From Alphaproteobacteria bacterium (lineage in GTDB: Bacteria; Pseudomonadota; Alphaproteobacteria; UBA828): a DNA stretch of 64,000 bases. Under the pieces are notes generated by a model that was not told where the DNA came from, did no database searches, and worked only from the letters and a program-made list of their open reading frames with translations. The stretch spans positions 32,001 through 96,000 of the forward strand of contig CAXXVO010000012.1 in assembly GCA_963422645.2 (NCBI GenBank), in the 5' to 3' direction. Of the stretch, positions 11,776 through 61,898 are shown piece by piece (the first letter of the stretch is position 1; every line of letters starts with the position of its first letter). The translations under genes and the position numbers were made by a program.

Positions 11776-12605
11776 CGCCGTGCCCTCTTCGGCTTGGCGG
11801 GCTCGCCCAGGATCTCCATGAAGAGCTTCTCGTCGAGAACCTCGCGGTTCTTCTCGGCGCCGGCGGCGAGCAGCATGTCGCCCATGACGGTAAGCGCCCT
11901 GGGGTTGCCGCCGGCGTGGGTGACCAGGGTGTCCTTGAGCTCTGCGCTCATGAGGCCCGGATTGCCGCCCTGCTCGACCAGATGGTCGAGCAGGGCCGCG
12001 AGGTCGCCGGCGTCTGCCTGGGTCATGACCAGGCGCTGGCGCAGGCGCGAGGCGATGGGCTGCAAGTCGGGCTGGCGGAGCCTGTCGATCAGGCGGCTGT
12101 CGCCGGCGAAGACGACCGAGAGGATGGCGCGCGAGTCGAAGTCGGTGGACGCCAGCAGGCGGATCTCGGAGATCACCGAGGGCAGCAGCTCCTGGGCCTC
12201 GTCGATGAGCACCACGGGCCGCATGCGGGTGTCGTCGACATGGGTGAGCCATCGCTCGCGCAGGTTTTTGAAGCTGGCCCAGCGGTTGTTGTACATCAGG
12301 TCGACGCCGAACATCCCGCCGATCTCGCGGTAGAAGTCGGACAGCCTGGAAGAGGGGTGGGTGATGGCACAGACCCTGAGCCCGTCCGAGCGGCCGAGGC
12401 GGTCGGCGAGCACGCGCAACGCCACGCTCTTTCCGGTGCCGGGCTCGCCGGCGATCAACGCGAAGCCGCCCTGGCGCACAAGATGATGCTCGATTCTGAG
12501 GCAGAAGCTGTCGACGGCGGGGCTCACCATGAGGCTGTCGACCGGAAGGTCGGTGGCGAAGGGGTTCCATTTGAGCCCGTAGAAGGTGAGCAGCTCGCGG
12601 TTCAT
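11772..12605 (-). CDS. Transposon-associated ExeA-like AAA ATPase (TnsC/MuB-like role)
   Basis: YGLKWNPF, GEPGTGKS, LIDEAQ, GNPR; coupled to the transposase. Confidence 0.82.
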   Translation of the reverse strand: MNRELLTFYGLKWNPFATDLPVDSLMVSPAVDSFCLRIEHHLVRQGGFALIAGEPGTGKSVALRVLADRLGRSDGLRVCAITHPSSRLSDFYREIGGMFGVDLMYNNRWASFKNLRERWLTHVDDTRMRPVVLIDEAQELLPSVISEIRLLASTDFDSRAILSVVFAGDSRLIDRLRQPDLQPIASRLRQRLVMTQADAGDLAALLDHLVEQGGNPGLMSAELKDTLVTHAGGNPRALTVMGDMLLAAGAEKNREVLDEKLFMEILGEPAKPKRARR

Positions 12606-14078
12606 GACGGATCTCCCTGATCGTCGTCCTCGCCCGGACCGGGCGTCTTGTTATGGGGTACCCAGGCCGGCGGCAGGCCTGTTGCGGCCTGGGCGTCGAG
12701 CACGCCCTTGAGCAGCGGCGGAAGTTCGCCGACGCCCGCGCTGGCGCCGCCATGGTCGCTGCCGGGTCTCGCAGGACGGCGGACGCCATCGGCGTTGCCG
12801 CGCTTGTCGAGGGGGTACAGCGTGCACAGCCGCTCGCCGCTTCGGCCTTCCACCAGATCGACGCCGCTGAGGTCCCAGCGCGCATAGCGGACCCAGAGCG
12901 TCCTCAGGTGGCGCCACGGCTGTGGCACCTGGTAGCGGATGCCCTCGACCGAGACGGTGCCGTCCGAGCGCCTGAGCGTGCGCTTCCTGGCGATGCGGAA
13001 GGCCGCCTTGAGCTCGTCCGAGGCGGGGCAGGGCCTCGATGCCTTGACGCTCCCGGCGAGGCGTTCATGCGGCGTCATGCCGAGCTCGCGGTGCACCCGC
13101 CGATGGTAGTCCTGCTCCAGCCAGGCTATGGTGGCGTCGTTGAGCATCTTCAGGGTGAGCGCGTCGACGCCTTCGAGCTGAGCCATCAGGCGGCCCTCGA
13201 CCGTGCCCCAGAACGACTCGATTTTTCCATTTTGATGGGGGCTGTAAGCGAGTGTCGTGGCCCCCACGATGCCGAGGCGGTGCAAGCCCTCCTCGACCTC
13301 GCCCGCCGTCATCGGCCCGCCGTTGTCGGTCAGCAGGGACCTGGGCAAGTCCCTCTTCATGAAGGCCTGACAGAGCCCGTGGACGAAGACCTCGGCGGTC
13401 TCCTCCAGGTACCACTGCAGGTGGCAGCCAAGCCTGGAGTGGTCGTCGAGGAAGCCGAGCAGGATGGGCGTCTGCCATTCGCCCGACGCCGTCAGCACGC
13501 GGCGCTTGCCGTGGTGGAAGTCCCCGTGCCACAGCGCGTGACTGCGAGACACCTCGTAGCTAAGGACCTCGCGGGCTTCGACCGCCGGCTTGTCCTCACC
13601 CTCGTGCCACTTCCTGGGGCGCTCGCGCACCAGGCCGCGATTGCGCATCGCCCGCGCTCAGCGTCGCGTAGGACGGCATCGGGCCGAGCTCGGGATGGGT
13701 CGCAACATGAGCCTTGAGGGTCTCGTAGTGGAGCTGCGCCGCCCACGAGGGATGGACCCGGTACTGCTCGCGCAGCGCCGCGATCAGCCCCGCCGACATG
13801 GACCGCTCGCGGCCGACGTCGGTCCGAGGCTTCCGGCGCAGCGCCTTGACCGGGTCCTGCTCCTCTGCCCGCGCCCGGTAGTACCAGCGCTCGATCGTCG
13901 AGGCCGCAAAGCGCACCGGCCCCTTGCCCGACGGGTGCTCCCAGTCGCGCTGCGACAGACGCTCGAACTCGGCCCCCAGCTGGCCTGCAGGCGGCGGTGA
14001 AGCCAGAAGCGGCCCCACCACCGCAAAGCGCAGCCGGGCCCACTTCTCGCGCCTGGCGCCCGCGTCGTCCTTGTCCAT
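12602..14078 (-). pseudogene. DDE transposase (rve/Mu-like), +1 frameshift near 13657
   Basis: WHGDFHH, FLDDHSR, TDNG, GKIESFW; matches the intact copy at 39560..41035 apart from one extra base. Confidence 0.85.
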
Positions 14079-14127
14079 TCCGGCATCCCTCCCTCGCCGC
14101 ATCGGAGAGATGCCCATGTAGAACGCC

Positions 14128-14745
14128 CTATCCGGGCGTGACAGGAACACTTTCTGCGGGCGGCGCCGAGCCATCGCCGAGCCCGCAATAGCCCGTCCAC
14201 GGCTTGAACCAGATCAGGCTCAGGAACAGACGCTCACCGAAGCGTCCGCCCCGCATCTGCCGCAGCACGAAGAGCAGCGGCACCTCCTCGGGTGGCATCA
14301 CCAGTTCGCCACGCTTCGCTCCCCAGGGCTCCGTCGCCGGGAACGCCTCCAGCCACCACTTCCGCCAGCGGCGCAGTGTGGCGACCGAGACCCCCCACTT
14401 CCGCTTGATCGTCTGCAACCGCACCCCGCCTCTCAGAACCAGTGCACTCAACAGAACGAACAGGGCGCCCAGATAAAAGCGGCGCCCGAAGAATCGTACC
14501 GATGGTGGGGTCGCTCGCAGGCGGCAATCCGCGCAGCAGAAGCTGAACCGCCGCGTGCCCTCTTCCCTCAACTCGGCTGCCAGACCGTACGGCTTGCGCG
14601 GATACGTCGCGCTGTGCAGCTTGCCGGGGCAGTGTCGGCAGCCCGCCTCGCGGCAGCGCGCCGCCTCGGCCTCATCGACCTCGCGCAGCCAGGCCCAGAC
14701 CAGGGCGTTGCAAAGCATGGAGTGGCGGAAAATGTTGTGCGACAT
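14128..14745 (-). CDS. Zn-finger/HTH accessory protein of the transposon
   Basis: CRHC..CCADC and GVSVATLRRWRKWW HTH; identical protein at 38893..39510. Confidence 0.7.
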   Translation of the reverse strand: MSHNIFRHSMLCNALVWAWLREVDEAEAARCREAGCRHCPGKLHSATYPRKPYGLAAELREEGTRRFSFCCADCRLRATPPSVRFFGRRFYLGALFVLLSALVLRGGVRLQTIKRKWGVSVATLRRWRKWWLEAFPATEPWGAKRGELVMPPEEVPLLFVLRQMRGGRFGERLFLSLIWFKPWTGYCGLGDGSAPPAESVPVTPG

Positions 14746-14895
14746 TGGGGCCGTCTCTGGCGATTGTGACCGTCACCACGAGACAAAGCCCCCCGGCGAA
14801 CTTCTTGCAAGTTCGCCGAGGGGCACCCGCCCCAAAACCTCAACAAATCCGAGCGGATCAGGCCCCGATCCCCGCTGAAAGACCGCGCGCGCTCA

Positions 14896-15267
14896 GAAGG
14901 CCGGTCCGACGCCGACTGGCCCGCGGCCGTGCTCGGAGGCCCGGTCATGGCCGCCATCGGCGCACGCTCCCGAACCGCCCGCCTCTCCGCAGAAACCGCC
15001 GCAAAGCAGGCCAGGAGACACCCCGATCTCGAACCCGCAGACTACGCCCGCGTCCAGCGCATCCTCGATCAAGGGGAGATGTTCGTGGAGGACAACGGCC
15101 GTTTCGCGCAGGGCTTCCTCGAAGAGGACGGGCGCCTGTGGAAGGCCGTCGTCAAGTCGGCCGCAGGTGGCGACGAGGCCTACATCGTGAGCCTGCACAA
15201 GGCGCAGCCCCATAACCTCGACGCCGCGCGCCGGCGCCTGAAGCGGATTGTCGGGGAGGGAGGTTGA
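14896..15267 (+). pseudogene. C-terminal PBECR-type nuclease domain of a MuF-like head protein, 5' part lost at the transposon junction
   Basis: Open frame from the junction: DWPAAVL..AIGA..LSAET..KQ..HPDL..DY..WKAVVK..GDEAYIVSLH, as in phage BECR-fold nuclease domains; same position relative to the Mu-like end as MuF in element B. Confidence 0.6.
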
Positions 15268-15334
15268 CGCCGGGCGGGTCGTAAACCCCGCGCTCGCCCG
15301 AAGGCATGAGAGGACTACGAATGCTTCCGGCGTC
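15266..15334 (+). ncRNA. Putative structured (pseudoknotted) RNA
   Basis: Closing stem GACGCCGG/CCGGCGTC; inner hairpins GCGGG/CCCGC and CTC-GCC/GGC-GAG; loop TCGTA complementary to TACGA (15316-15320). Confidence 0.4.
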
Positions 15335-15412
15335 GCGCCCGACCCTACGCGCCGCCGCACGCCACCTCAAGCCGATTCAGCGCCCCGGCGCGGGCCGCCG
15401 CCAGCCTCGCGG

Positions 15413-15701
15413 GACGGGCGCCTCGCCCCGCACCTCGCACCGGATTTTCCAGCCGAATCCGATACCCCGAAACCGCACCGATTTACGGGCCTTTCAGCAC
15501 CCCTGAAACGCCCCGAAAATCATCGTTTCCAGCCAATTCACGGCCTCTGCACGGCCCGATTCGCAAAGACTTCCGTCCGCACGCCAGCCGCCGCACCGCC
15601 ACCGTGCCGCCGCGCATCCCCTTGAGATTCCGCCACCTTCCGCCCGATTCCGCCTGATTCCACCCCTTGACCCGATTCACAACGACTTTCGTCCGTCTAC
15701 A
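15413..15701 (-). mobile_element. Left end of Mu-like transposable element A
   Basis: Minus strand begins TGTAGACGGACGAAAGTCGTTGTGAAT; second site GGACGGAAGTCTTTGCGAAT about 120 bp inside; homologous to 37397-37665; truncates the aminotransferase. Confidence 0.8.
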
Positions 15702-31115: not shown

Positions 31116-32699
<1,584 letters not shown>

Positions 32700-37396: not shown

Positions 37397-37666
37397 TGTA
37401 GGGGGACGAAAGTCATTGCGAATCCGGAAGATGCCGGGAAGAAGGCGGAAGAAGGCGGACGGTCAAGGGGTTGGCGGCGTTTCCGGGGTCTGGCGGGCCG
37501 GACGAAAGTCTTTGCGAATCCGGCCCGGAAAGGGCCGTGAATTGGCTGGAAACGGTGATTTTCGGGGCGTTTCAGGGGTGCTGAAAGGCCTGTAAATCGG
37601 GGCGGTTCCGGGGGTGCGGATTCGCCGGCAAATCCCGGTGCGGCGCGGTGCTTCGCCTCGCCCGGT

Positions 37667-38605
37667 CTACGATGCCGGCGTTGTCCCCGCGCCGGCCTCC
37701 TTCCCTTCGAGATCGGCGCGCCGCGGGTCGCGTGCGATCTCCTCGTCGGAGAAGGGCTTTCGCCCGGGGTTCCCGACCTCCCAGCTTTCCATCCATGGCA
37801 GCGACTGGCATCCGCAGTTGATCGTCTCGGCGGCGGGTCCGGCGGGATCGCGGGGGTACATGAGCGTGGCGCCGCCGACGTCGAAGGGCCTGGCGGCTTC
37901 CCTGGTCTGTCCGTCGACGGCGTCGTGGGCGATGCGGCTTCTGAGCTTTCCGGAGCGTCGCCACTGCTTCCTCAGCCCCGGCAGGATCCCGGCGGCCTGC
38001 TCCATGCGCTGCTGTCCGGCCATGGAGTATGCGCGGCCGAGCTCGGTCCGCACGATTGTCAGGGCGCGGGACCTGCCGCCGGTCTTGAGGATGGCGGCGA
38101 CGCGTCCGGTGGTCTCGCCGACGGGGACCGAGCCGGTCATGGCGAGGCCGAGCTGGGTGTTGACGCGGTCTGCGAGGGCGGCGGTGACGCCCTTCATCTT
38201 GTCGGTGAGGAAGGATCGCATGGCGAGGAGCTGGCGGGTGTCGACCCGGGGCAGGACGGCGGCGATGCGGAAGTCGGGGGCATCGAGGCGCATGGCGGCG
38301 TCGACGGGGGCGTCCACGGTATCGATGCCGGCGTCCCAGGCGCGGGTTGCGCCCTCGGCCATGGCCTGCCCGGCGTCTGCGCCGAGGCTGTCGAGGGCGT
38401 CCCGGACGGAGGCCTGGAGGGATGGCAGCGCCCATGCCTGGTAATCGGAGGGCGCGCCGGCGAGGGTGGCCCGGATGTCGCGCTCGGCGCGCCCGAGGAT
38501 GCGGCCGACCTCGGCGGCGGTGTCCTTCTGGATGCGGGGCAGGGCGCGGGCGCGGCGGGATCGCTCGCCCTTGAGCCTGCGCTCGCGCTGACGGTCGGTA
38601 GCCAC
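37667..38605 (-). CDS. Phage minor head protein (MuF/gp7-like), no toxin extension
   Basis: RALTIVRTELGRA, KQWRRSG..R..H..VDGQ, LMYPRDP.GPAAETINCGC. Confidence 0.82.
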   Translation of the reverse strand: MATDRQRERRLKGERSRRARALPRIQKDTAAEVGRILGRAERDIRATLAGAPSDYQAWALPSLQASVRDALDSLGADAGQAMAEGATRAWDAGIDTVDAPVDAAMRLDAPDFRIAAVLPRVDTRQLLAMRSFLTDKMKGVTAALADRVNTQLGLAMTGSVPVGETTGRVAAILKTGGRSRALTIVRTELGRAYSMAGQQRMEQAAGILPGLRKQWRRSGKLRSRIAHDAVDGQTREAARPFDVGGATLMYPRDPAGPAAETINCGCQSLPWMESWEVGNPGRKPFSDEEIARDPRRADLEGKEAGAGTTPAS

Positions 38606-38608
38606 GTG

Positions 38609-38742
38609 CTACGCCTCGCCGTCGTCGGCGTCCTCGTCCTGCGGGGGCTCGCGGAAGGCGTCTTCTTCGGCCCGTCCGGCGGCGTCTTCGCGCGCCGCCT
38701 CGAGTTCGGCGTCGGCGTCGATCTCGACGCCGAGGCGCCCGG
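38609..38742 (-). pseudogene. Acidic C-terminal fragment of the gene upstream of MuF (probable portal), cut by the transposon
   Basis: ..GRLGVEIDADAELEAAREDAAGRAEEDAF..; portal identity inferred from position only. Confidence 0.4.
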
Positions 38743-38892
38743 TGAGCGCGCGCGGTCTTTCAGCGGGGATCGGGGCCTGATCCGCTCGGATTTGTTGAGG
38801 TTTTGGGGCGGGTGCCCCTCGGCGAACTTGCAAGAAGTTCGCCGGGGGGCTTTGTCTCGTGGTGACGGTCACAATCGCCAGAGACGGCCCCA

Positions 38893-39510
38893 ATGTCGCA
38901 CAACATTTTCCGCCACTCCATGCTTTGCAACGCCCTGGTCTGGGCCTGGCTGCGCGAGGTCGATGAGGCCGAGGCGGCGCGCTGCCGCGAGGCGGGCTGC
39001 CGACACTGCCCCGGCAAGCTGCACAGCGCGACGTATCCGCGCAAGCCGTACGGTCTGGCAGCCGAGTTGAGGGAAGAGGGCACGCGGCGGTTCAGCTTCT
39101 GCTGCGCGGATTGCCGCCTGCGAGCGACCCCACCATCGGTACGATTCTTCGGGCGCCGCTTTTATCTGGGCGCCCTGTTCGTTCTGTTGAGTGCACTGGT
39201 TCTGAGAGGCGGGGTGCGGTTGCAGACGATCAAGCGGAAGTGGGGGGTCTCGGTCGCCACACTGCGCCGCTGGCGGAAGTGGTGGCTGGAGGCGTTCCCG
39301 GCGACGGAGCCCTGGGGAGCGAAGCGTGGCGAACTGGTGATGCCACCCGAGGAGGTGCCGCTGCTCTTCGTGCTGCGGCAGATGCGGGGCGGACGCTTCG
39401 GTGAGCGTCTGTTCCTGAGCCTGATCTGGTTCAAGCCGTGGACGGGCTATTGCGGGCTCGGCGATGGCTCGGCGCCGCCCGCAGAAAGTGTTCCTGTCAC
39501 GCCCGGATAG
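38893..39510 (+). CDS. Zn-finger/HTH accessory protein of the transposon
   Basis: Identical to 14128..14745. Confidence 0.7.
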   Translation: MSHNIFRHSMLCNALVWAWLREVDEAEAARCREAGCRHCPGKLHSATYPRKPYGLAAELREEGTRRFSFCCADCRLRATPPSVRFFGRRFYLGALFVLLSALVLRGGVRLQTIKRKWGVSVATLRRWRKWWLEAFPATEPWGAKRGELVMPPEEVPLLFVLRQMRGGRFGERLFLSLIWFKPWTGYCGLGDGSAPPAESVPVTPG

Positions 39511-39559
39511 GGCGTTCTACATGGGCATCTCTCCGATGCGGCGAGGGAGGGATGCCGGA

Positions 39560-41035
39560 ATGGACAAGGACGACGCGGGCGCCAGGCGCGAGAAGTGGGC
39601 CCGGCTGCGCTTTGCGGTGGTGGGGCCGCTTCTGGCTTCACCGCCGCCTGCAGGCCAGCTGGGGGCCGAGTTCGAGCGTCTGTCGCAGCGCGACTGGGAG
39701 CACCCGTCGGGCAAGGGGCCGGTGCGCTTTGCGGCCTCGACGATCGAGCGCTGGTACTACCGGGCGCGGGCAGAGGAGCAGGACCCGGTCAAGGCGCTGC
39801 GCCGGAAGCCTCGGACCGACGTCGGCCGCGAGCGGTCCATGTCGGCGGGGCTGATCGCGGCGCTGCGCGAGCAGTACCGGGTCCATCCCTCGTGGGCGGC
39901 GCAGCTCCACTACGAGACCCTCAAGGCTCATGTTGCGACCCATCCCGAGCTCGGCCCGATGCCGTCCTACGCGACGCTGACGCGGGCGATGCGCAATCGC
40001 GGCCTGGTGCGCGAGCGCCCCAGGAAGTGGCACGAGGGTGAGGACAAGCCGGCGGTCGAAGCCCGCGAGGTCCTTAGCTACGAGGTGTCTCGCAGTCACG
40101 CGCTGTGGCACGGGGACTTCCACCACGGCAAGCGCCGCGTGCTGACGGCGTCGGGCGAATGGCAGACGCCCATCCTGCTCGGCTTCCTCGACGACCACTC
40201 CAGGCTTGGCTGCCACCTGCAGTGGTACCTGGAGGAGACCGCCGAGGTCTTCGTCCACGGGCTCTGTCAGGCCTTCATGAAGAGGGACTTGCCCAGGTCC
40301 CTGCTGACCGACAACGGCGGGCCGATGACGGCGGGCGAGGTCGAGGAGGGCTTGCACCGCCTCGGCATCGTGGGGGCCACGACACTCGCTTACAGCCCCC
40401 ATCAAAATGGAAAAATCGAGTCGTTCTGGGGCACGGTCGAGGGCCGCCTGATGGCTCAGCTCGAAGGCGTCGACGCGCTCACCCTGAAGATGCTCAACGA
40501 CGCCACCATAGCCTGGCTGGAGCAGGACTACCATCGGCGGGTGCACCGCGAGCTCGGCATGACGCCGCATGAACGCCTCGCCGGGAGCGTCAAGGCATCG
40601 AGGCCCTGCCCCGCCTCGGACGAGCTCAAGGCGGCCTTCCGCATCGCCAGGAAGCGCACGCTCAGGCGCTCGGACGGCACCGTCTCGGTCGAGGGCATCC
40701 GCTACCAGGTGCCACAGCCGTGGCGCCACCTGAGGACGCTCTGGGTCCGCTATGCGCGCTGGGACCTCAGCGGCGTCGATCTGGTGGAAGGCCGAAGCGG
40801 CGAGCGGCTGTGCACGCTGTACCCCCTCGACAAGCGCGGCAACGCCGATGGCGTCCGCCGTCCTGCGAGACCCGGCAGCGACCATGGCGGCGCCAGCGCG
40901 GGCGTCGGCGAACTTCCGCCGCTGCTCAAGGGCGTGCTCGACGCCCAGGCCGCAACAGGCCTGCCGCCGGCCTGGGTACCCCATAACAAGACGCCCGGTC
41001 CGGGCGAGGACGACGATCAGGGAGATCCGTCATGA
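39560..41035 (+). CDS. DDE transposase (rve/Mu-like), intact
   Basis: N-terminal HTH (STIERWYY), WHGD..DDHSR..TDNG..GKIE; RBS GAGGGAGG. Confidence 0.9.
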   Translation: MDKDDAGARREKWARLRFAVVGPLLASPPPAGQLGAEFERLSQRDWEHPSGKGPVRFAASTIERWYYRARAEEQDPVKALRRKPRTDVGRERSMSAGLIAALREQYRVHPSWAAQLHYETLKAHVATHPELGPMPSYATLTRAMRNRGLVRERPRKWHEGEDKPAVEAREVLSYEVSRSHALWHGDFHHGKRRVLTASGEWQTPILLGFLDDHSRLGCHLQWYLEETAEVFVHGLCQAFMKRDLPRSLLTDNGGPMTAGEVEEGLHRLGIVGATTLAYSPHQNGKIESFWGTVEGRLMAQLEGVDALTLKMLNDATIAWLEQDYHRRVHRELGMTPHERLAGSVKASRPCPASDELKAAFRIARKRTLRRSDGTVSVEGIRYQVPQPWRHLRTLWVRYARWDLSGVDLVEGRSGERLCTLYPLDKRGNADGVRRPARPGSDHGGASAGVGELPPLLKGVLDAQAATGLPPAWVPHNKTPGPGEDDDQGDPS

Positions 41036-41568
41036 ACCGCGAGCTGCTCACCTTCTACGGGCTCAAATGGAACCCCTTCGCCACCGACCTTCCGGTCGAC
41101 AGCCTCATGGTGAGCCCCGCCGTCGACAGCTTCTGCCTCAGAATCGAGCATCATCTTGTGCGCCAGGGCGGCTTCGCGTTGATCGCCGGCGAGCCCGGCA
41201 CCGGAAAGAGCGTGGCGTTGCGCGTGCTCGCCGACCGCCTCGGCCGCTCGGACGGGCTCAGGGTCTGTGCCATCACCCACCCCTCTTCCAGGCTGTCCGA
41301 CTTCTACCGCGAGATCGGCGGGATGTTCGGCGTCGACCTGATGTACAACAACCGCTGGGCCAGCTTCAAAAACCTGCGCGAGCGATGGCTCACCCATGTC
41401 GACGACACCCGCATGCGGCCCGTGGTGCTCATCGACGAGGCCCAGGAGCTGCTGCCCTCGGTGATCTCCGAGATCCGCCTGCTGGCGTCCACCGACTTCG
41501 ACTCGCGCGCCATCCTCTCGGTCGTCTTCGCCGGCGACAGCCGCCTGATCGACAGGCTCCGCCAGCCC
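41032..41568 (+). pseudogene. ExeA-like AAA ATPase, truncated
   Basis: Identical to 11772..12605 up to RLRQP, then unrelated sequence. Confidence 0.85.
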
Positions 41569-42157
41569 CACATTCGGCCCCTGGGGCCTCGACCGGTACG
41601 CAACCCACGCCGACGAGGCCGAGCGCCACCGCGCCGACCGGGTGATGCTCGGCATCACCTCGTGGGACACCGCCGACGACATGCACCGCATGTACTGGTA
41701 TCCCGTCTACCGCGCGCGCACCGCCGTCCCCATGGAACTCCCCTTCTTCCCCGGCTGGGAGGACGGCGCGCAGTGGCCGCCGTCGCGGGACGACCCCTTC
41801 GGACCCGTCGCCGGGCGCTTCGCGCTCCAGGCCCTGCTCCCGCCCGGGCTGGAGGCGCTCACCTACCGGTGCACCGCCGCGGCAGAGCCCTGCGGACGCT
41901 GCCCCAGATGCCGCCTCAACGCCTTCTTCGAGCGCTTCTGCCGGGGACGCCCGGCGGACCAGGTCGCCCGCATCGACGACGCCCTCGAACGACACCGCGG
42001 CGCAGGCCGATGGTACGCCGACGCCGACCCCGGAAGATGGACCGGTCACGACGGATACGACGCCGCAGAACGCGCCGTCGAAGACCCCGAATGGTGGAAG
42101 GCCGAACTCGAACGCCCGTGCCGCCCCGGCGCCCGCCCCGGTCCCGACCGCGCCTGA
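41569..42157 (+). pseudogene. C-terminal fragment of a phage protein with a QueC-like Zn motif
   Basis: Frame of ORF 41642..42157 is open back to the junction; TYRC-x5-PCGRCPRC resembles the QueC/ExsB C-terminal Cys motif. Confidence 0.4.
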
Positions 42158-42334
42158 AACCCTCACGCACCGCCCGTGCACGGGCCCTGAACCCCCCGCG
42201 CAGCGCTCCTTCACGGCCCATGCACAGGCCGGTTTTTCCAGCCCGATTCAGCCCCGAAAACCAGACGATTTTCCAGGCCATTCGCAAAGACTTCCGGCCG
42301 CGATTCGCAAAGACTTTCGTCCGGCTACAGCGGC

Positions 42335-42743
42335 GCTCTTCGGGCTCTCCATCGACCGTGCGATGCAGGAGGTCGAGAGGCTGGCCCGATTCGAGGAATT
42401 GACTGAGCGTCTCGATCCCTGGCTGGAGGCGCGCGCCTTCGAGGCCGACGCAACCATCGTGACGCAGGGCGAGGAGCAGGAAGGCATGCTGCTCGTGACC
42501 GAGGGCAGAGCGATCGCGCGCGAGGGCGACACCGGCGCACGGATGGCCGAGCTCGGACCCGGCGATGCGCTTGCCGCCGAAGCGGCGTTCGTCCCTTACG
42601 TGCCGCAGGTCTCGGTGGTGGCGGCGACGCCCTGCCGCGCCGCCCTGATGACGCCAGCCGCCCGCCGCGCGTTGGAGCGCGACGACCTCGCACTCGCCGT
42701 CGAGCTGGACAGGTACCTGATCGAGACGATCTCGGCGCATTAG
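42335..42743 (+). pseudogene. SulP 3' part with cNMP-binding domain
   Basis: IVTQGE..GMLLVTEG..ELGPGDAL cNMP motif; rejoins 35607..37396 as DAARAALFGLSIDRAMQ. Confidence 0.85.
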
Positions 42744-42873
42744 AGCGCGTCCGTCTTTGACGGATGCGGGACAGCACTTGCGTTCTGCATGTTTTGAGAC
42801 GGCAATCGTCCGACGGTTGGGTGTGCCGGCGCGCGACCGTCGAGAGGCGTGCGCGGCGGCGCACTACAGTCAA

Positions 42874-42926
42874 CCCCGCAACATGGTGCGGTGGAGGGCG
42901 CGGGGCTGCCGCGTCAGCATCGCGGC
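42874..42926 (+). promoter_or_regulatory. Dyad plus leaderless promoter-like motif upstream of the gp27-like gene
   Basis: CCGCA-ACATGG-TGCGG dyad; CAGCAT 6 nt before ATG; no SD; repeated with identical spacing at 61555-61610. Confidence 0.55.
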
Positions 42927-43640
42927 ATGCAAAACCTGAACCGACCCATCAGAATCGGCGGGCGCTCCTCCATCGACCGCCTGCCGTCCAAACTCCGCGA
43001 GGCCGTCGATCAAGCCATCGCGGACGGCGCCACCATCGACGACATAACCGCCCTCATCCGGGCCGAGGGCGGCTCCTGCTCGCGTTCGGCCGTCGGCCGC
43101 TATTCCAAGAATATGCGCGCCCTGATCCGCGAACAGCAGGAGTTCGACCGCGCGATGAGGATCTGGGTGCGGGAACTCGGCGAGCGCGCGGAAGGCCGCG
43201 CCGGGCTTATCCTGATCGAGACCCTGCGGACGATGGTGCTCTCCAGCATGGCCGAACTCAGCCAACGCGGAGAGCCTGCGCCCATGCGAGAACTTGCCCG
43301 CCTCGCCCTCACCCTCAAGCGCATCGAAGGCACCGACAAGCTTCGCCTCGAGCGGGAGCGCACGACGGCAAAGCCGGCACCCGTCGGCGGGGCCAAGCCC
43401 CAGGGCGGCCTCTCGCCGGAGACCGCCGCCGCCATCCGCGAGGTCGTGGAGGGCCGGCCCGAGCCGCCCGACCGCACCCTCACGTCGGTGCCGGTCGATG
43501 CCTGGGCGCCTGCGAGTTCCCGGCCATCCAGCTTAATCCCACCTGATCCCGGACAGAAATTCCCGGTTCGCTCGGGGCGGAGGGCGGCGGTGCGGCGCAA
43601 CTCTGCCGCAAGCCCGGATCAGGCGTCCGGCAGCCGGTAA
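42927..43640 (+). CDS. Stand-alone phage Mu gp27-like (DUF3486) protein, putative small terminase
   Basis: GRSSIDRLP..LR..V...I.DG.TID.I...I...G...SRSAVGRY is the DUF3486 N-terminal pattern; ELARLA..L..IE. Confidence 0.75.
   Translation: MQNLNRPIRIGGRSSIDRLPSKLREAVDQAIADGATIDDITALIRAEGGSCSRSAVGRYSKNMRALIREQQEFDRAMRIWVRELGERAEGRAGLILIETLRTMVLSSMAELSQRGEPAPMRELARLALTLKRIEGTDKLRLERERTTAKPAPVGGAKPQGGLSPETAAAIREVVEGRPEPPDRTLTSVPVDAWAPASSRPSSLIPPDPGQKFPVRSGRRAAVRRNSAASPDQASGSR
43517..43561 (+). repeat. 10-bp-periodic ATCC(C) array ending AGAAATT
   Basis: TTCCC 43517; ATCC at 43526, 43536 and 43546; paralogous array at 61746-61791. Confidence 0.5.
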
Positions 43641-45247
43641 TCCTGAAACATCTCGCGCAGGCGCGACTTCTGAATCTTGCCGGTGGCGGTGAGCGGCAGC
43701 TCGTCGACCAGCACGACGTCGTCGGGCAGCCACCACTTCGCGACCCTGGCCGCGAGGTAGGCGTTGATGGTGTCTTTGTCGGGCGTGCAGCCGTCCCTCG
43801 GCACCACCACCATGAGCGGCCGCTCCTCCCACTTGGGATGGAAGATGCCGATGACCGCGGCCTGCTTCACGTCCGGGTGGCCGACCGCCGCGTTCTCCAG
43901 GTCGATGGAGCTGATCCACTCGCCGCCCGACTTGATCACGTCCTTGGTGCGGTCGGTGATCCGCATGAAGCCGTGCTCGTCGAGGGTGGCGACGTCGCCG
44001 GTGGGGAACCAGCCGTTCTCGTCGAGCCGGTCCCCGCCCTCGCCCTTGAAGTAGCCGCTGGCGGCCCAGTTGCCGCGCACCCACATGTCGCCGAATGTCT
44101 TGCCGTCGCGCGGTACCGGCGCGCCGTCGGCGTCGGTGATCGTGAGCTCCAGGCCGAACTGCACGCGGCCTTGTTGACTCAGCACCGCCTGGCGCTCCTC
44201 TTCGGTAAGCGCGTCGATTGCCGGAGTCGCCGTCGCCATGGTGCCGAGCGGCGAGGTCTCGGTCATGCCCCAGAGCTGGTGCACCGTCACCCCGTAGGGG
44301 TCGGCCAGCCGCTCGATCATCGCGCGCGGCACTGCCGAGCCGCCGATGGCGACACGCTCCAGGCTTTCCACCGTCTTGCCCTTCTCGTCGAGATGGTCGA
44401 TCAGCATGGTGAACACCGTCGGCACGCCGAGGGCGAAGGTCACTCCCTCCCCTTCGATCAGCTCCTGCAGGCTCTGCCCGTCCATCTGCGTGCCGGGCAG
44501 CACCAGGCCTGCGCCGGAGAGGCAGCCGAGGTAGGGCAGCGACCAGGCGTTGCCGTGGTACATCGGCGCGATCGGCATCAGCACGTCGTGGGCGGAGATT
44601 CCCATGGCGCTGTTCTGGCAGGCAGCCATGGCGTGCAGCAGGGTCGAGCGGTGGCTGTAGAGCACGCCCTTGGGATTGCCCGTCGTGCCTGAGGTATAGC
44701 AAAGCGAGGACGCGGCGCGCTCGTCGAAGACCGGCCACGCGTAGTCCCCACTCTCGGCCGCGAGCAGGGTCTCGTAGCAGAGGACGTTGGCGAGCGCGAT
44801 CTCGGGCATGTGGTCTTCATCGGCCATCACCACGACCTGCTCGACCGTGGTGAGCTGATCCGCGATGCGCTCTACCAGCTCGACGAAGGTGAGGTCCACG
44901 AAGAGCACCCGGTCTTCCGCGTGGTTGATGATGTAGACGATCTGCTCGGTGAAGAGCCGCGGGTTCACCGTGTGCAGGACGGCGCCCATGCCCGAGACCC
45001 CGTAGAAGAGCTCCAGGTGCCGGTAGCCGTTCCAGGCCAGCGTGCCGACCCGGTCGCCGTGGCCGATCCCGAGCCGCGCCATGACGTTGGCGACGCGCCG
45101 CGCGCGCCCTTCGCACTCGGCATAGCCGTAGCGGTGGATAGGCCCCTCGACGGTGCGCGAGACCACCTGGCGGTCGCCGTGATACTCCGCCGCATAGCGA
45201 ATCAGCGACGAGATCATCAGCGGGATCTCCTGCATCAGGCCGTGCAT
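43619..45247 (-). CDS. Acyl-CoA ligase (DmdB/FadD-like)
   Basis: [42 protein letters not shown]. Confidence 0.92.
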
Positions 45248-45413
45248 GGCTCCTCCCCTCGATCGGTCGGCCGGGGCCGCTCCCCTCGCGCCATTATCGG
45301 CTGCCGCCGCGCCGGTCGAAAGACTTTCCGGTGCGTCGCTGATATTCTCGCCGCCCTTGCAGGGAGCGGCGCATGGTCGCGCTGCGGCGTGGGAGAGCGG
45401 GGAGGAGAGGATC

Positions 45414-46181
45414 GTGAAACTGGAGGGAAAGACGGCGCTGATTACCGGCGGCTCTTCGGGCATCGGCGAGGCGATCGCGGTCAGATTCGCGGCCGAAGGC
45501 GCGCGCATCGCGGTCGCGGCTTCCTCGAATCTGGCCAAGGCCCAGGCCGTGGTGGAGAAGATCGAGGCATCGGGCGGCGCGGCCCAGGCCTTTGTCGCCG
45601 ACGTGCGCGACGTGAGCTCGGTCAAGGCGTTGGTCGGCGACGTGAAGGCAGCGTTCGGCCGCATCGACATTCTGGTCAACTCGGCCGGTATCTTCGAGCC
45701 GACGCCGATCGGCGAGACCACCGAGGCCGAGTACGACGCCACCATGGACATCAACGTGAAGGGCACCTTCTTCGCGATCAACGAGGTGGCGCCGGTCATG
45801 ATCGCGCAGGGCGGCGGCAAGATCGTCAACCTCTCGTCGGTGACGGGGGTGATGGGGTTCAAGACCTTCTCGGTCTATTGCGCGTCGAAGGCCGCGATTA
45901 ACTACCTCACCCGCGCGCTCGCGCTGGAGCTCAGCCCCCACAACATCGCGGTGAACGCGATCCTGCCCGGCAACACGGCGACACCGATGAACGTGAAGAT
46001 CCGCACCGAGCCGCAGTTCGAGGAGATGCTGGAGGGCATGACCGCGGTGACGCCGAGCAACCGGACCTATTCGGAGCCCGACGACATGGCGTCCGCCGCG
46101 CTCTTCCTCTGCTCCGAGGATGGCCGTGCCGCCCACGGCTCGCTCATGCTGCTGGACGAGGGCATCTCCTGCGGCCTCTGA
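45414..46181 (+). CDS. SDR family oxidoreductase
   Basis: TGGSSGIG, NSAG, YCASK. Confidence 0.92.
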   Translation: MKLEGKTALITGGSSGIGEAIAVRFAAEGARIAVAASSNLAKAQAVVEKIEASGGAAQAFVADVRDVSSVKALVGDVKAAFGRIDILVNSAGIFEPTPIGETTEAEYDATMDINVKGTFFAINEVAPVMIAQGGGKIVNLSSVTGVMGFKTFSVYCASKAAINYLTRALALELSPHNIAVNAILPGNTATPMNVKIRTEPQFEEMLEGMTAVTPSNRTYSEPDDMASAALFLCSEDGRAAHGSLMLLDEGISCGL

Positions 46182-61554: not shown

Positions 61555-61791
61555 CCCCGGAACATGGTGCGGTGCACAGCGCACGCCGCCAGCCTCAGTG
61601 TCGCGCCATGAGGCACAAGAGAGAGCGGGCCGAGGCAGGCGGAGCCGGCATGAGCGGGAGCTCGTCGCTGGGGCGGCTGCGTCCCGCACTTCGCTCTAAC
61701 GCCGTCGACGCCCCTATCAAGGACAGCGGCGGCGGCGACTCGGGACTCCCGCTTATCTCGCCAAATCCCGGCGAATCCCGCAGAAGAAATT
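61555..61791 (+). repeat. Gene-less paralog of the gp27 cassette (promoter-like motif plus 10-bp-periodic array)
   Basis: AACATGGTGCGGTG 47 nt before ATG (61608), as at 42880/42927; ATCYCG at 61755, 61765 and 61775, then AGAAATT. Confidence 0.55.
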
Positions 61792-61898
61792 GTGTCGCCG
61801 TCTCACTCCGTGCGCGACAAGCAGGGCATGACGCAGGCCGCAACGGTGTTGAGAAAGCCAGGTCGGGGACGGCGGCGGGTCGGTGCCCGCCCACTCAT

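Follow-up and report, generated by a model that had tools for sequence, protein, structure and literature searches.

The 64,000-nucleotide stretch of DNA analysed here (the window: positions 32,001 to 96,000 of contig CAXXVO010000012.1, assembly GCA_963422645.2, from an alphaproteobacterium of the GTDB lineage UBA828) carries at 42927-43640 a solitary gene that resembles the small terminase (TerS) gp27 of phage Mu. We propose that this gene, together with the promoter-like block before it and the repeat array at its 3' end, is one copy of a TerS-plus-array cassette family in the late regulon of a domesticated, Mu-derived element of the gene transfer agent (GTA) type. We hold this reading at about even confidence; that the GTA-like element is conserved in most species of the genus, which is part of it, seems to us just as evenly poised. 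Small terminases select the DNA that enters the capsid, and little is understood of how they recognise it. GTAs are believed to have abandoned packaging specificity and are described as packaging DNA at random. An earlier interpretation of the window (the sequence-only reading) had described the cassette as a stand-alone minimal module; it is instead one eroded member of a large family, with 47 matches to its 5' block and 40 to its 3' array in the same genome. The features of the window copy are as follows.

42874..42929, plus strand: family promoter block of 56 nt, ending in the ATG of the open reading frame (ORF); nhmmer profile, paired with 61555-61610
42876..42891, no strand assigned: dyad CCGCAACATGGTGCGG, centred 43.5 nt before the A of the ATG at 42927
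42915..42920, plus strand: CAGCAT, a -10-like hexamer at -12..-7 from the A of the ATG, 6 nt before the ATG
42927..43640, plus strand: TerS-like ORF of 237 amino acids (aa); PF11985 and phrog_426 matches, alignment A1, ortholog comparison
43526..43561, plus strand: residual array of three 10-bp-phased units, ATCCAGCTTA ATCCCACCTG ATCCCGG, then AGAAATT; shortened by two deletions

The ORF matches PF11985 (Phage_Mu_Gp27, DUF3486) with an E value of 2.1e-22 and 80.8 bits against a cut-off of 28, which bears out its earlier assignment as a DUF3486/Mu gp27-like gene. Residues 16-176 align with profile positions 1-171 of 173, and the ORF also matches phrog_426, 'terminase small subunit' (E 3.4e-28). 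The conserved part comprises codons 1-176, ending at 43454. In an AF2 model (pLDDT 72), a predicted N-terminal three-helix helix-turn-helix (HTH) at residues 15-46 (helices 15-18, 21-32 and 37-46) is followed by long helices at 53-85, 91-113 and 120-148, and the chain stays helical up to residue 175 before a disordered tail. The gene is flanked by an ORF with a cyclic nucleoside monophosphate (cNMP)-binding domain upstream and a convergent AMP-binding ligase downstream; as already noted from the letters alone, it is solitary among host genes, and neither a large terminase (TerL) gene nor any other phage gene adjoins it. Hereafter, G000 denotes the genome of the window (5.9 Mb in 23 contigs, given C numbers) and other G numbers denote compared genomes. 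The position directly before TerL is held not by the window ORF but only by canonical paralogs on contigs C6 and C9 and by a truncated copy in G003.

The geometry of the upstream block was correctly read at first sight: a dyad about 44 nt before a leaderless ATG, with CAGCAT in the -10 position. The mRNA is presumably leaderless because no Shine-Dalgarno sequence precedes the ATG of the window gene. The dyad consensus across the family is CCG[C/G]ACCATGGTGCGG, the position of the -10-like hexamer is invariant among all aligned copies, and the whole 5' block follows the consensus CCCCGGACCATGGTGCGGTGCAC - ~20 nt - GCGTCAG(C/G)ATCGCG(G/C)CATG. Within the window the block at 42874-42929 pairs with that at 61555-61610, the two being 75% identical, and the 14-mer AACATGGTGCGGTG occurs only at 42880 and 61561, against 0.01 occurrences expected. 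An nhmmer profile of the block found 47 matches in the genome at E<0.1, 38 of them at E<1e-5, and none of the 47 was seen before a housekeeping gene. For a taxonomic scan, the 19-nt core GGACCATGGTGCGGTGCAC was sought with up to two mismatches, and its reversed pattern as a control, in 20 sister genomes of the genus and 20 genomes outside it. The core occurs 33 times in the window's genome, 10-74 times per genome in 17 of the 20 sisters and 0-2 times per genome in the 20 genomes of other genera; it was found zero times in the sister genomes G012, G015 and G016, and the reversed control gave 0 in every genome scanned. Contigs from public sequencing runs (a virome, a metatranscriptome and two presumed RNA runs) were short, came from relatives and covered host genes and parts of the ORF; they revealed neither read starts or ends nor any sign of transcription. 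Alphaproteobacterial LexA, CtrA, sigma-54 and EcfG motifs were each tried for the block and rejected, as their consensus sequences gave no fit; DnaA boxes were likewise rejected, TTATCCCAC differing from TTATCCACA.

The same 56-nt block stands directly before other phage late genes, and the upstream motif, first described as a phage-late-type promoter, probably is one. A Mu-type portal gene follows it in G005 and G004 by sequence and in G018, G006, G014 and G002 by coordinates. Of the 17 sister genomes with cassettes, 16 have this portal (~412-432 aa) at near-identical score (~293-305 bits), and in G020 it is broken by one internal stop; none was found in G012 or G016, and G015 has only a fragment. 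The block also lies directly before TerL in G018, G004 and G005. TerL is single-copy in G003, G004, G005, G009, G013 and G017, while G018 has this TerL plus one prophage copy; no conserved TerL was found in G015 or G016, and G012 gave only a weak, unlike match. TerL and the portal gene are direct neighbours in G009 and G017; in G018 the distance between them is 80 kb. An ORF with RTX repeats separates them in G004 and G005, and probably in G013, where the spacing alone was seen. The RTX gene encodes calcium-binding repeats (~448 aa; G004 L172:4270-5616, G005 L167:16535-17878), and the TerL-portal spacing in G009 and G017 is too small for it. An integrase adjoins TerL only in G018.

A head protease gene with the block lies at C15:208877 in the window's genome (phrog_976, E 2e-36), and the block precedes it by coordinates in G005, G014, G006 and G002. 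The protease occurs in 16 of 20 sister genomes (absent from G012, G015, G016 and G018) and in 0 of 20 outside genomes. In G005 it is followed by genes for a scaffold, the major head protein (phrog_1005, E 1.6e-68), a head-tail adaptor and Neck1. G018 further has a solitary block-bearing tail-fibre/collar gene by the ATP synthase operon and the block before a DUF5675/phrog_1501 lysis-region gene. In the portal copies and the TerL copy of G018, the ATG of the block opens a short upstream ORF (uORF) that ends in overlap with the real start codon (TGATG or GTGA), an arrangement that would fit leaderless initiation followed by coupling. A domesticated GTA-like system fits these data better than piracy, because the visible partners of the cassettes are chromosomal and conserved, namely TerL, portal and head genes. 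In the strain of the window the system may be defective, since its protease is interrupted, its portal was seen only at a contig end and the window cassette is eroded. The protease gene (C15:208877-213002) is interrupted ~262 codons from its start by ~2.7 kb that G005 lacks. This insert includes an ORF resembling a DNA methyltransferase (phrog_56).

The comparison with the resident Mu-like prophages went against the sequence-only reading: these multi-copy prophages carry neither block nor array. Their canonical gp27 genes (C6, C9 and C13) immediately precede TerL; GemA and SLT lie upstream, and Mu F follows downstream. We observed two Mu-like prophage lineages, with TerLs ~40% identical, in several full or partial copies in the window's genome (C9:183-190 kb, C15:383.8 kb, C8:85-89 kb, C6:350-369 kb and C13:165-169 kb). 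In the IMG/VR virus collection, a 17-nt core of the block had one match, within an unrelated coding region. These findings bear on the possibility that the family acts as an anti-phage decoy or interference system, its TerS variants and decoy arrays misdirecting or poisoning the terminase of an infecting Mu-like phage. The presence of several copies of two prophage lineages would suit such a role, and packaging interference is known from phage satellites. However, with the motif absent from the resident prophages and from IMG/VR, no phage-borne activator is in view; the block appears to co-regulate a conserved chromosomal head, portal and TerL set that a decoy does not need; and the copies examined had no known defence genes next to them (no PADLOC search was made). 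The diversified TerS paralogs, of variable specificity, are in its favour, as are a fairly high ratio of non-synonymous to synonymous substitution (dN/dS, omega) of ~0.5 and a variable recognition region, both expected in arms races. Overall, we consider a decoy function improbable.

As the sequence-only reading had spotted, ATCC units lie exactly 10 bp apart at the 3' end of the window gene. There are three of them (43526-43549), and the pattern is found at one place in the window and in none of 100 shuffles. Intact copies show the full layout of this 3' block: 2-7 tandem decamers of the TTATCCCACT type, then AATCCCGGCGAATCCCGC, an A/T tract (AAAAATTTG) and, ~10 nt on, one more unit (GTCCCAC). 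A profile of it gave the 40 matches in the window's genome mentioned above, and 23 pairs of promoter and array blocks are spaced 119-349 nt apart there. A full unit thus consists of the 56-nt promoter block up to the ATG, the TerS-like gene and the 10-bp array with its A/T tract. The majority of copies are minis of 120-350 bp with both ends only; they retain the promoter block, the first codons (..GRSS..RLP..) and the array, and have lost the interior. The second site of the window, at 61555-61806, is one such mini, and the earlier observation that both motifs recur at 61555-61791 was confirmed by its block at 61555-61610 and its 10-bp units at 61753-61781.

61555..61610, plus strand: mini promoter block (dyad 61557-61572, CAGTGT 61596-61601, ATG 61607)
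61611..61752, plus strand: remnant of the TerS-like N-terminus (..MSGSSSLGRLRPALR..), the remainder of the gene deleted; translation compared with the GRSSIDRLPSKLR motif of alignment A1
61753..61806, plus strand: mini array TTATCTCGCC AAATCCCGGCG AATCCCGC with A/T tract AGAAGAAATTG (61782-61792) and terminal unit GTCTCAC (61800-61806)

The minis correspond to no known RNA family, because an Rfam scan of 42000-64000 at E<=1 gave just one sub-threshold snoRNA-like match, located elsewhere. A 16-nt array word had 31 matches in IMG/VR, mostly on contigs of far lower G+C content, with neither the 5' block nor the family architecture. The 3' end of the gene adjoins or contains the array. In G003, G002, G018 and the V-class copies described below the ORF stops before the array, and in most other lineages the frame reads straight through it (..PVDPWNPAESHLIPLNPGES..); the array is therefore a DNA element. 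At C8:64803-67161 of the window's genome, a 5' block and an array of the GRGCC type lie on the same strand with 2.2 kb between them that hold long opposite-strand open frames; this may be an element split by an insertion or two partial elements.

Such a layout also invites a reading in which the TerS-like proteins were recruited as regulators or origin-type initiators: the array, A/T tract and further unit resemble iterons by an unwinding element, and each unit could then serve as a small origin of replication or amplification, or as a site of regulation, that comes into action with the particle genes. In agreement with this, all array classes keep to one plan (2-7 phased repeats, an A/T tract of 8-11 nt, a further unit), and the array is positioned by the gene of its presumed binder. 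On the other side, the protein matches over its full length a family that precedes TerL in phages, its C-terminal helix is conserved as in canonical gp27, and no helicase-loader or primase partner was seen beside the copies. We regard recruitment of this kind as very improbable, and a role of the units as origins or regulatory sites as every bit as remote.

The array units fall into several classes, namely ATCCC(A/G)C, G(G/A)GCC(A/G)C, GTGCC in G002 and, in one copy, ATCTCAC, all of which share the overall architecture and the 5' block. The GRGCC pattern has 31 matches in G000, 42 in G017, 52 in G006 and 43 in G011, against 0 for the control. We classified the proteins by the residue that follows 'CSRSAV' in the predicted recognition helix. 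A Gly at this position accompanies xTC units in 45 of 48 copies, an Ala accompanies GTG units (locus L102), and a Val (the V class) accompanies GGG/GAG units at one locus conserved in G017, G006, G011 and G008. This covariation of helix and array, which rests on few independent events, is suggestive. The array looks like the cognate binding site of the TerS-like protein, given that array units and recognition helix change in concert.

Several full-length copies of ~700-800 bp are present in each of the genomes G004, G013, G009, G008, G017, G011 and G006, with 15 PF11985 matches in G004 and 9 in G017. A protein search returned 787 relatives at E<1e-5, the best 120 of which are at least 63% identical and unnamed; the phage and plasmid collections yielded only distant DUF3486 proteins, 25-32% identical and adjoining terminases. 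In the literature, searched by DUF3486 and no other name, we found no description of the cassette family; the term was met in a Chromohalobacter phage genome and never together with 'small terminase'. An intact ORF is kept by 42 of the 45 full-length copies sampled. For 861 pairs of family copies the median omega is 0.51; over 20 computed pairs, most of them orthologous by shared flanks, omega ranges from 0.22 to 0.72. The TerS-like family is under moderate purifying selection, with omega ~0.5. Alignment A1 shows a nearly invariant C-terminal helix (L162, E165, V167, A168, I170 and G176), and many copies are syntenic between species, such as a copy on C10 with orthologs in G005, G008 and G009.

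These observations speak against the view that the family is neutral debris of many past Mu-like phage insertions, in which gene and arrays would have no present function. Random decay would not be expected to leave the same two boundaries in dozens of copies, nor 42 of 45 ORFs intact at synonymous divergence (dS) of up to 0.5; copies are both syntenic and intact across species, canonical prophage gp27 genes have no block or array, and the array classes track the helix. Transposable phages do insert widely, fragments of Mu-like prophages are scattered in the window's genome, and both the eroded state of the window copy (pN/pS ~1, lost stop, eroded array) and the almost neutral divergence of the minis, detailed below, are what debris would show. 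We judge this explanation quite unlikely.

The locus of the window gene is empty in G004 and G013. That of the mini at 61555-61806 is empty in the orthologous spacer of G004, G013, G019 and G020, and is occupied in G017 and G006 by a copy with GRGCC-type units. Within-genome paralogs are 85-97% identical, closer to each other than to the same-locus copy of other species, which indicates concerted evolution or turnover. Of the 35 elements whose neighbours on both sides were called, 26 lie behind a gene in the same orientation and 23 point towards a gene of opposite orientation, and several copies begin 0-20 nt past a stop codon. When 30 G005 loci were compared with G000, there was no clean recent insertion, only shared copies, internal indels and rearrangements, and most of the loci with a clear G000 counterpart are common to both genomes.

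Occupied and empty orthologous sites, close paralogs and the preference for gene 3' ends in co-orientation are all traits of a selfish family resembling miniature inverted-repeat transposable elements (MITEs). In that case the block and array would be the cis ends for a recombinase encoded elsewhere, and the TerS-like protein an accessory end-recognition factor; use of the block by phage genes would be promoter capture, with no packaging role. The high copy number, the nearly neutral minis and their deleted interiors with both ends kept, a hallmark of non-autonomous elements, argue in the same direction. However, neither terminal inverted repeats nor a recognisable target duplication were seen, the sole encoded protein has no catalytic domain, and no paralogs more than 97% identical turned up in the 8 genomes sampled. 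The lack of clean insertions among the 30 loci and the synteny of many copies between species are also at odds with an active mobile family, and the genes behind the block are not a random sample but form a coherent particle set. It is thus unlikely, in our estimate, that the cassettes are such a selfish family, and promoter capture by the phage genes appears unlikely to the same extent.

Several observations weigh against the GTA-like reading that we prefer, and the first concern the window copy itself. Its true orthologs, found in G005 and G010, are 91-92% identical to it across the locus. G000 and G010 share one and the same 3' gene part, and erosion of a related kind is seen in the G005 copy. 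Set against the C10 paralog and the same-locus copies of G017, G011 and G006, the window copy has suffered two deletions, which removed the native end (..ESWTEIAPRVYRTSPTSILSLGPE*) and most of the array, leaving the latter eroded. The last ~60 codons are non-native. The ORF runs 22 nt into the convergent ligase gene, over the ligase stop at 43619-43621, because its own stop codon was lost by the 3' deletions. Against its orthologs the 176-codon core shows 3-4.5 synonymous and 13-14.5 non-synonymous changes, giving a pN/pS of 1.1-1.5. With its array shortened, its stop lost and pN/pS ~1, the window copy is probably a weakening or dead member. The selection test proposed with the sequence-only reading thus gave a split result, favourable for the family and unfavourable for this copy. 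Between G000 and G005, synonymous divergence is 0.022 in the TerS-like core (42927-43454), against 0.136 in the ligase and 0.094 in the cNMP gene, and non-synonymous divergence is 0.033 in the core versus 0.016 at 43619-45862. The low synonymous divergence could reflect a recent exchange between lineages or constraint at the DNA level.

The remaining difficulties concern the family and its partners. The minis of G000 and G005 evolve nearly neutrally: 58 of 699 sites differ in the block (8.3%) and 407 of 3499 in the rest (11.6%), and many minis may be relics rather than working sites for this reason. The covariation of helix and array comes from one independent locus each for the Ala and Val classes, locus L106 (Ala) has mixed array units, and no V-class gene was found in the window's genome despite its GRGCC minis. 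The missing near-identical copies, inverted repeats and target duplications, counted above against a mobile repeat family, trouble the GTA-like reading as well: the two ends of the element are unlike each other, the empty sites sit in genomes with too diverged spacers for a clear duplication to be seen, and the way in which copies multiplied is not explained by the model. From the letters of the block we infer its promoter activity and transcription start. No activator was identified, and no homolog of Mor (PF08765) was found in the window's genome, so that the earlier suggestion of a switch-on by the Mor/C activator of a Mu-like phage found no support; an activator of another family may act instead. 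Fold searches retrieved no terminase structure: Foldseek against the PDB returned nothing at E<=0.001, VIA-align wide gave only generic helical-hairpin matches (Z<=8.1), and a profile search of PDB sequences found nothing below E 0.09. Finally, the Pfam families PF10124, PF05065 and PF04233 (Mu F) gave nothing in the cassette-bearing genomes tested, and the capsid was seen solely with PHROGs in G005, the particle genes covered reaching up to Neck1 plus the tail fibre. The Pfam capsid blanks reflect low sensitivity rather than absence, because PHROGs later found the capsid.

In the mechanism that we envisage, a putative dimeric activator would bind the dyad at -43.5 and turn on all 56-nt blocks together, the resulting mRNAs being leaderless. 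The regulon would include the head operon (protease, scaffold, major head protein, adaptor and neck), the TerL-portal pair, the tail fibre, the lysis-region genes and the dispersed TerS-like genes. Each TerS-like protein may bind, through its N-terminal HTH, the phased array that matches its class (ATCCC, GRGCC or GTGCC), whether next to its own gene or in trans at the minis, and its conserved C-terminal helix would recruit TerL. Packaging could then begin at dozens of marked chromosomal sites, with the minis as extra pac sites. We infer promoter activity, activator, protein-array binding, TerL recruitment, packaging and copy multiplication alike. That a domesticated Mu-type GTA packages in this manner from dispersed pac arrays read by TerS specificity variants, and not at random, is a tentative proposal, possible rather than probable.

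If true, this would amount to programmed, site-initiated transduction of the whole chromosome from one type of leaderless late promoter, a testable case of directed rather than random chromosomal transduction and a new way for a domesticated phage to influence recombination along the chromosome. Cassettes could then spread between strains within the very DNA whose packaging they cause, which would agree with a synonymous divergence 5-fold lower in the window gene than in its flanks. The genus offers natural pairs of TerS and array by the dozen, of three or more specificity classes, with TerL, portal and head genes under one motif, and would serve as a comparative system for the TerS recognition code. 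If the proposal is wrong, what is left is an unusual repeat family with a putative promoter and a putative protein-binding array as its ends, and its multiplication unexplained.

Other repeats are found near the cassettes. The 'elements A and B' of the sequence-only reading, there taken to be Mu-like, are a transposon present in two identical copies, inverted relative to each other, that encodes an rve transposase (523 aa) and an AAA_22 ATPase; their assignment to Mu-like phages was not confirmed.

12057-15700 and 37497-42325, inverted relative to each other: transposon copies, 100% identical over 1600 + 1238 nt

The 10-bp-phased arrays once reported in both left ends proved to be something else, as the ends carry a ~23-nt repeat of the CGATTCGCAAAGACTTTCGTCCG type (families D3 and D8). 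The cassette does lie outside element B at about the distance of 600 bp first given, the nearest transposon end (42325) being 549 bp from the promoter block. The 126-aa cNMP-binding ORF (42352-42743) starts right by this end, and matches from relatives begin at the first bases of the query, which began at 42350. A related element of G005 matches 23 places in the window's genome at ~77.5%, both window copies included, and the same CGATTCGCAAAGACTTTCGTCCG-type end interrupts the canonical gp27 of the prophage at C9:184.8 kb. The transposon had no match in the plasmid collection.

Three further repeats were observed. A small repeat of ~140 nt with hairpin ends TTAGAGCG(C/T)GTCCGTCTTTGACGGA is represented at 42741-42775 of the window and at G005 loci L053, L056, L062 and L065. 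At three G005 loci ~140 nt extra lie immediately 5' of the block where G000 has none, and at L053 the repeat sits within a ~205-nt segment missing from G000. A repeat starting GTAACTGCCCAGGT abuts the A/T tract of the array end at at least five G000 loci, listed below; at C8:652.7 kb, G000 has ~2 kb at the array end that G005 does not have. This suggests that the GTAACTGCCCAGGT repeat is an insertion sequence that targets the array end. REP-like (repetitive extragenic palindromic) repeats (..CCCTCAACGGCGGGCG..GCGGTCGCGCCGTCCGGGCTGCTTCGCAGCCCGGTCCC..) flank many cassettes on both sides in several species, for example at L067-L099 and at G000 C10:199.3 kb.

G000 C10:282162, C7:114071, C8:652727, C5:664729 and C9:511445, no strand assigned: loci of the GTAACTGCCCAGGT repeat

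Compared with known systems, the window protein is like Mu gp27 over the full DUF3486 profile, with a predicted N-terminal HTH followed by long helices. The canonical members, both in the window's genome and in phages, directly precede TerL, whereas the cassette genes are solitary among housekeeping genes, have their own block and 10-bp array, exist in many copies and are 25-32% identical to the phage members. In Mu, the late promoters are activated by C and the middle promoter by Mor, in a characteristic dyad geometry. The cassettes share with them a dyad at -43.5, the lack of a good -35 and the use of one motif for several late units, but their sequence is apparently unrelated, no Mor/C family protein was found in the window's genome and the mRNAs are apparently leaderless. 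Like MITEs and REP-type repeats, the cassettes are present in dozens of short intergenic copies with conserved ends, deleted interiors, a location at gene 3' ends and presence/absence polymorphism. Unlike these, they have no terminal inverted repeats, one end appears to be a promoter and the other is a decamer array, and the parent element encodes a TerS-like protein, not a transposase.

Staphylococcus aureus pathogenicity islands (SaPIs) offer a closer parallel, as their TerS is a satellite small terminase with its own pac site. With SaPIs and other phage-inducible chromosomal islands (PICIs), the cassettes share a TerS apart from TerL, an own recognition sequence and a presumed late co-activation; PICI-like elements (PLEs) are satellites that interfere with packaging. 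Unlike a PICI or SaPI island, the window copy and the paralogs examined have no integrase, replication or excision genes beside them; the units measure 0.2-0.8 kb, number dozens per genome, are largely syntenic and have conserved chromosomal genes, not those of a helper phage, as partners. It seems that the cassette unit works most like a satellite TerS with its own pac site, yet it is not an island.

The GTAs of Rhodobacter capsulatus (RcGTA) and Caulobacter crescentus (CcGTA) share with the regulon a conserved, mostly single-copy and clade-restricted set of head, portal and terminase genes over several loci and a shared promoter motif. The C-terminus of the RcGTA TerS is reported to bind TerL, and this protein, gp1, 'binds weakly to DNA' (PMC6854486). 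GafA and GafYZ are reported to be direct GTA activators. Unlike in RcGTA, the genes here are of Mu type (PF06074 portal, PF11985 TerS), TerS is amplified and diversified with class-specific arrays, and the system is known from its genes alone. Taken together, the regulon looks most like a GTA with dispersed loci.

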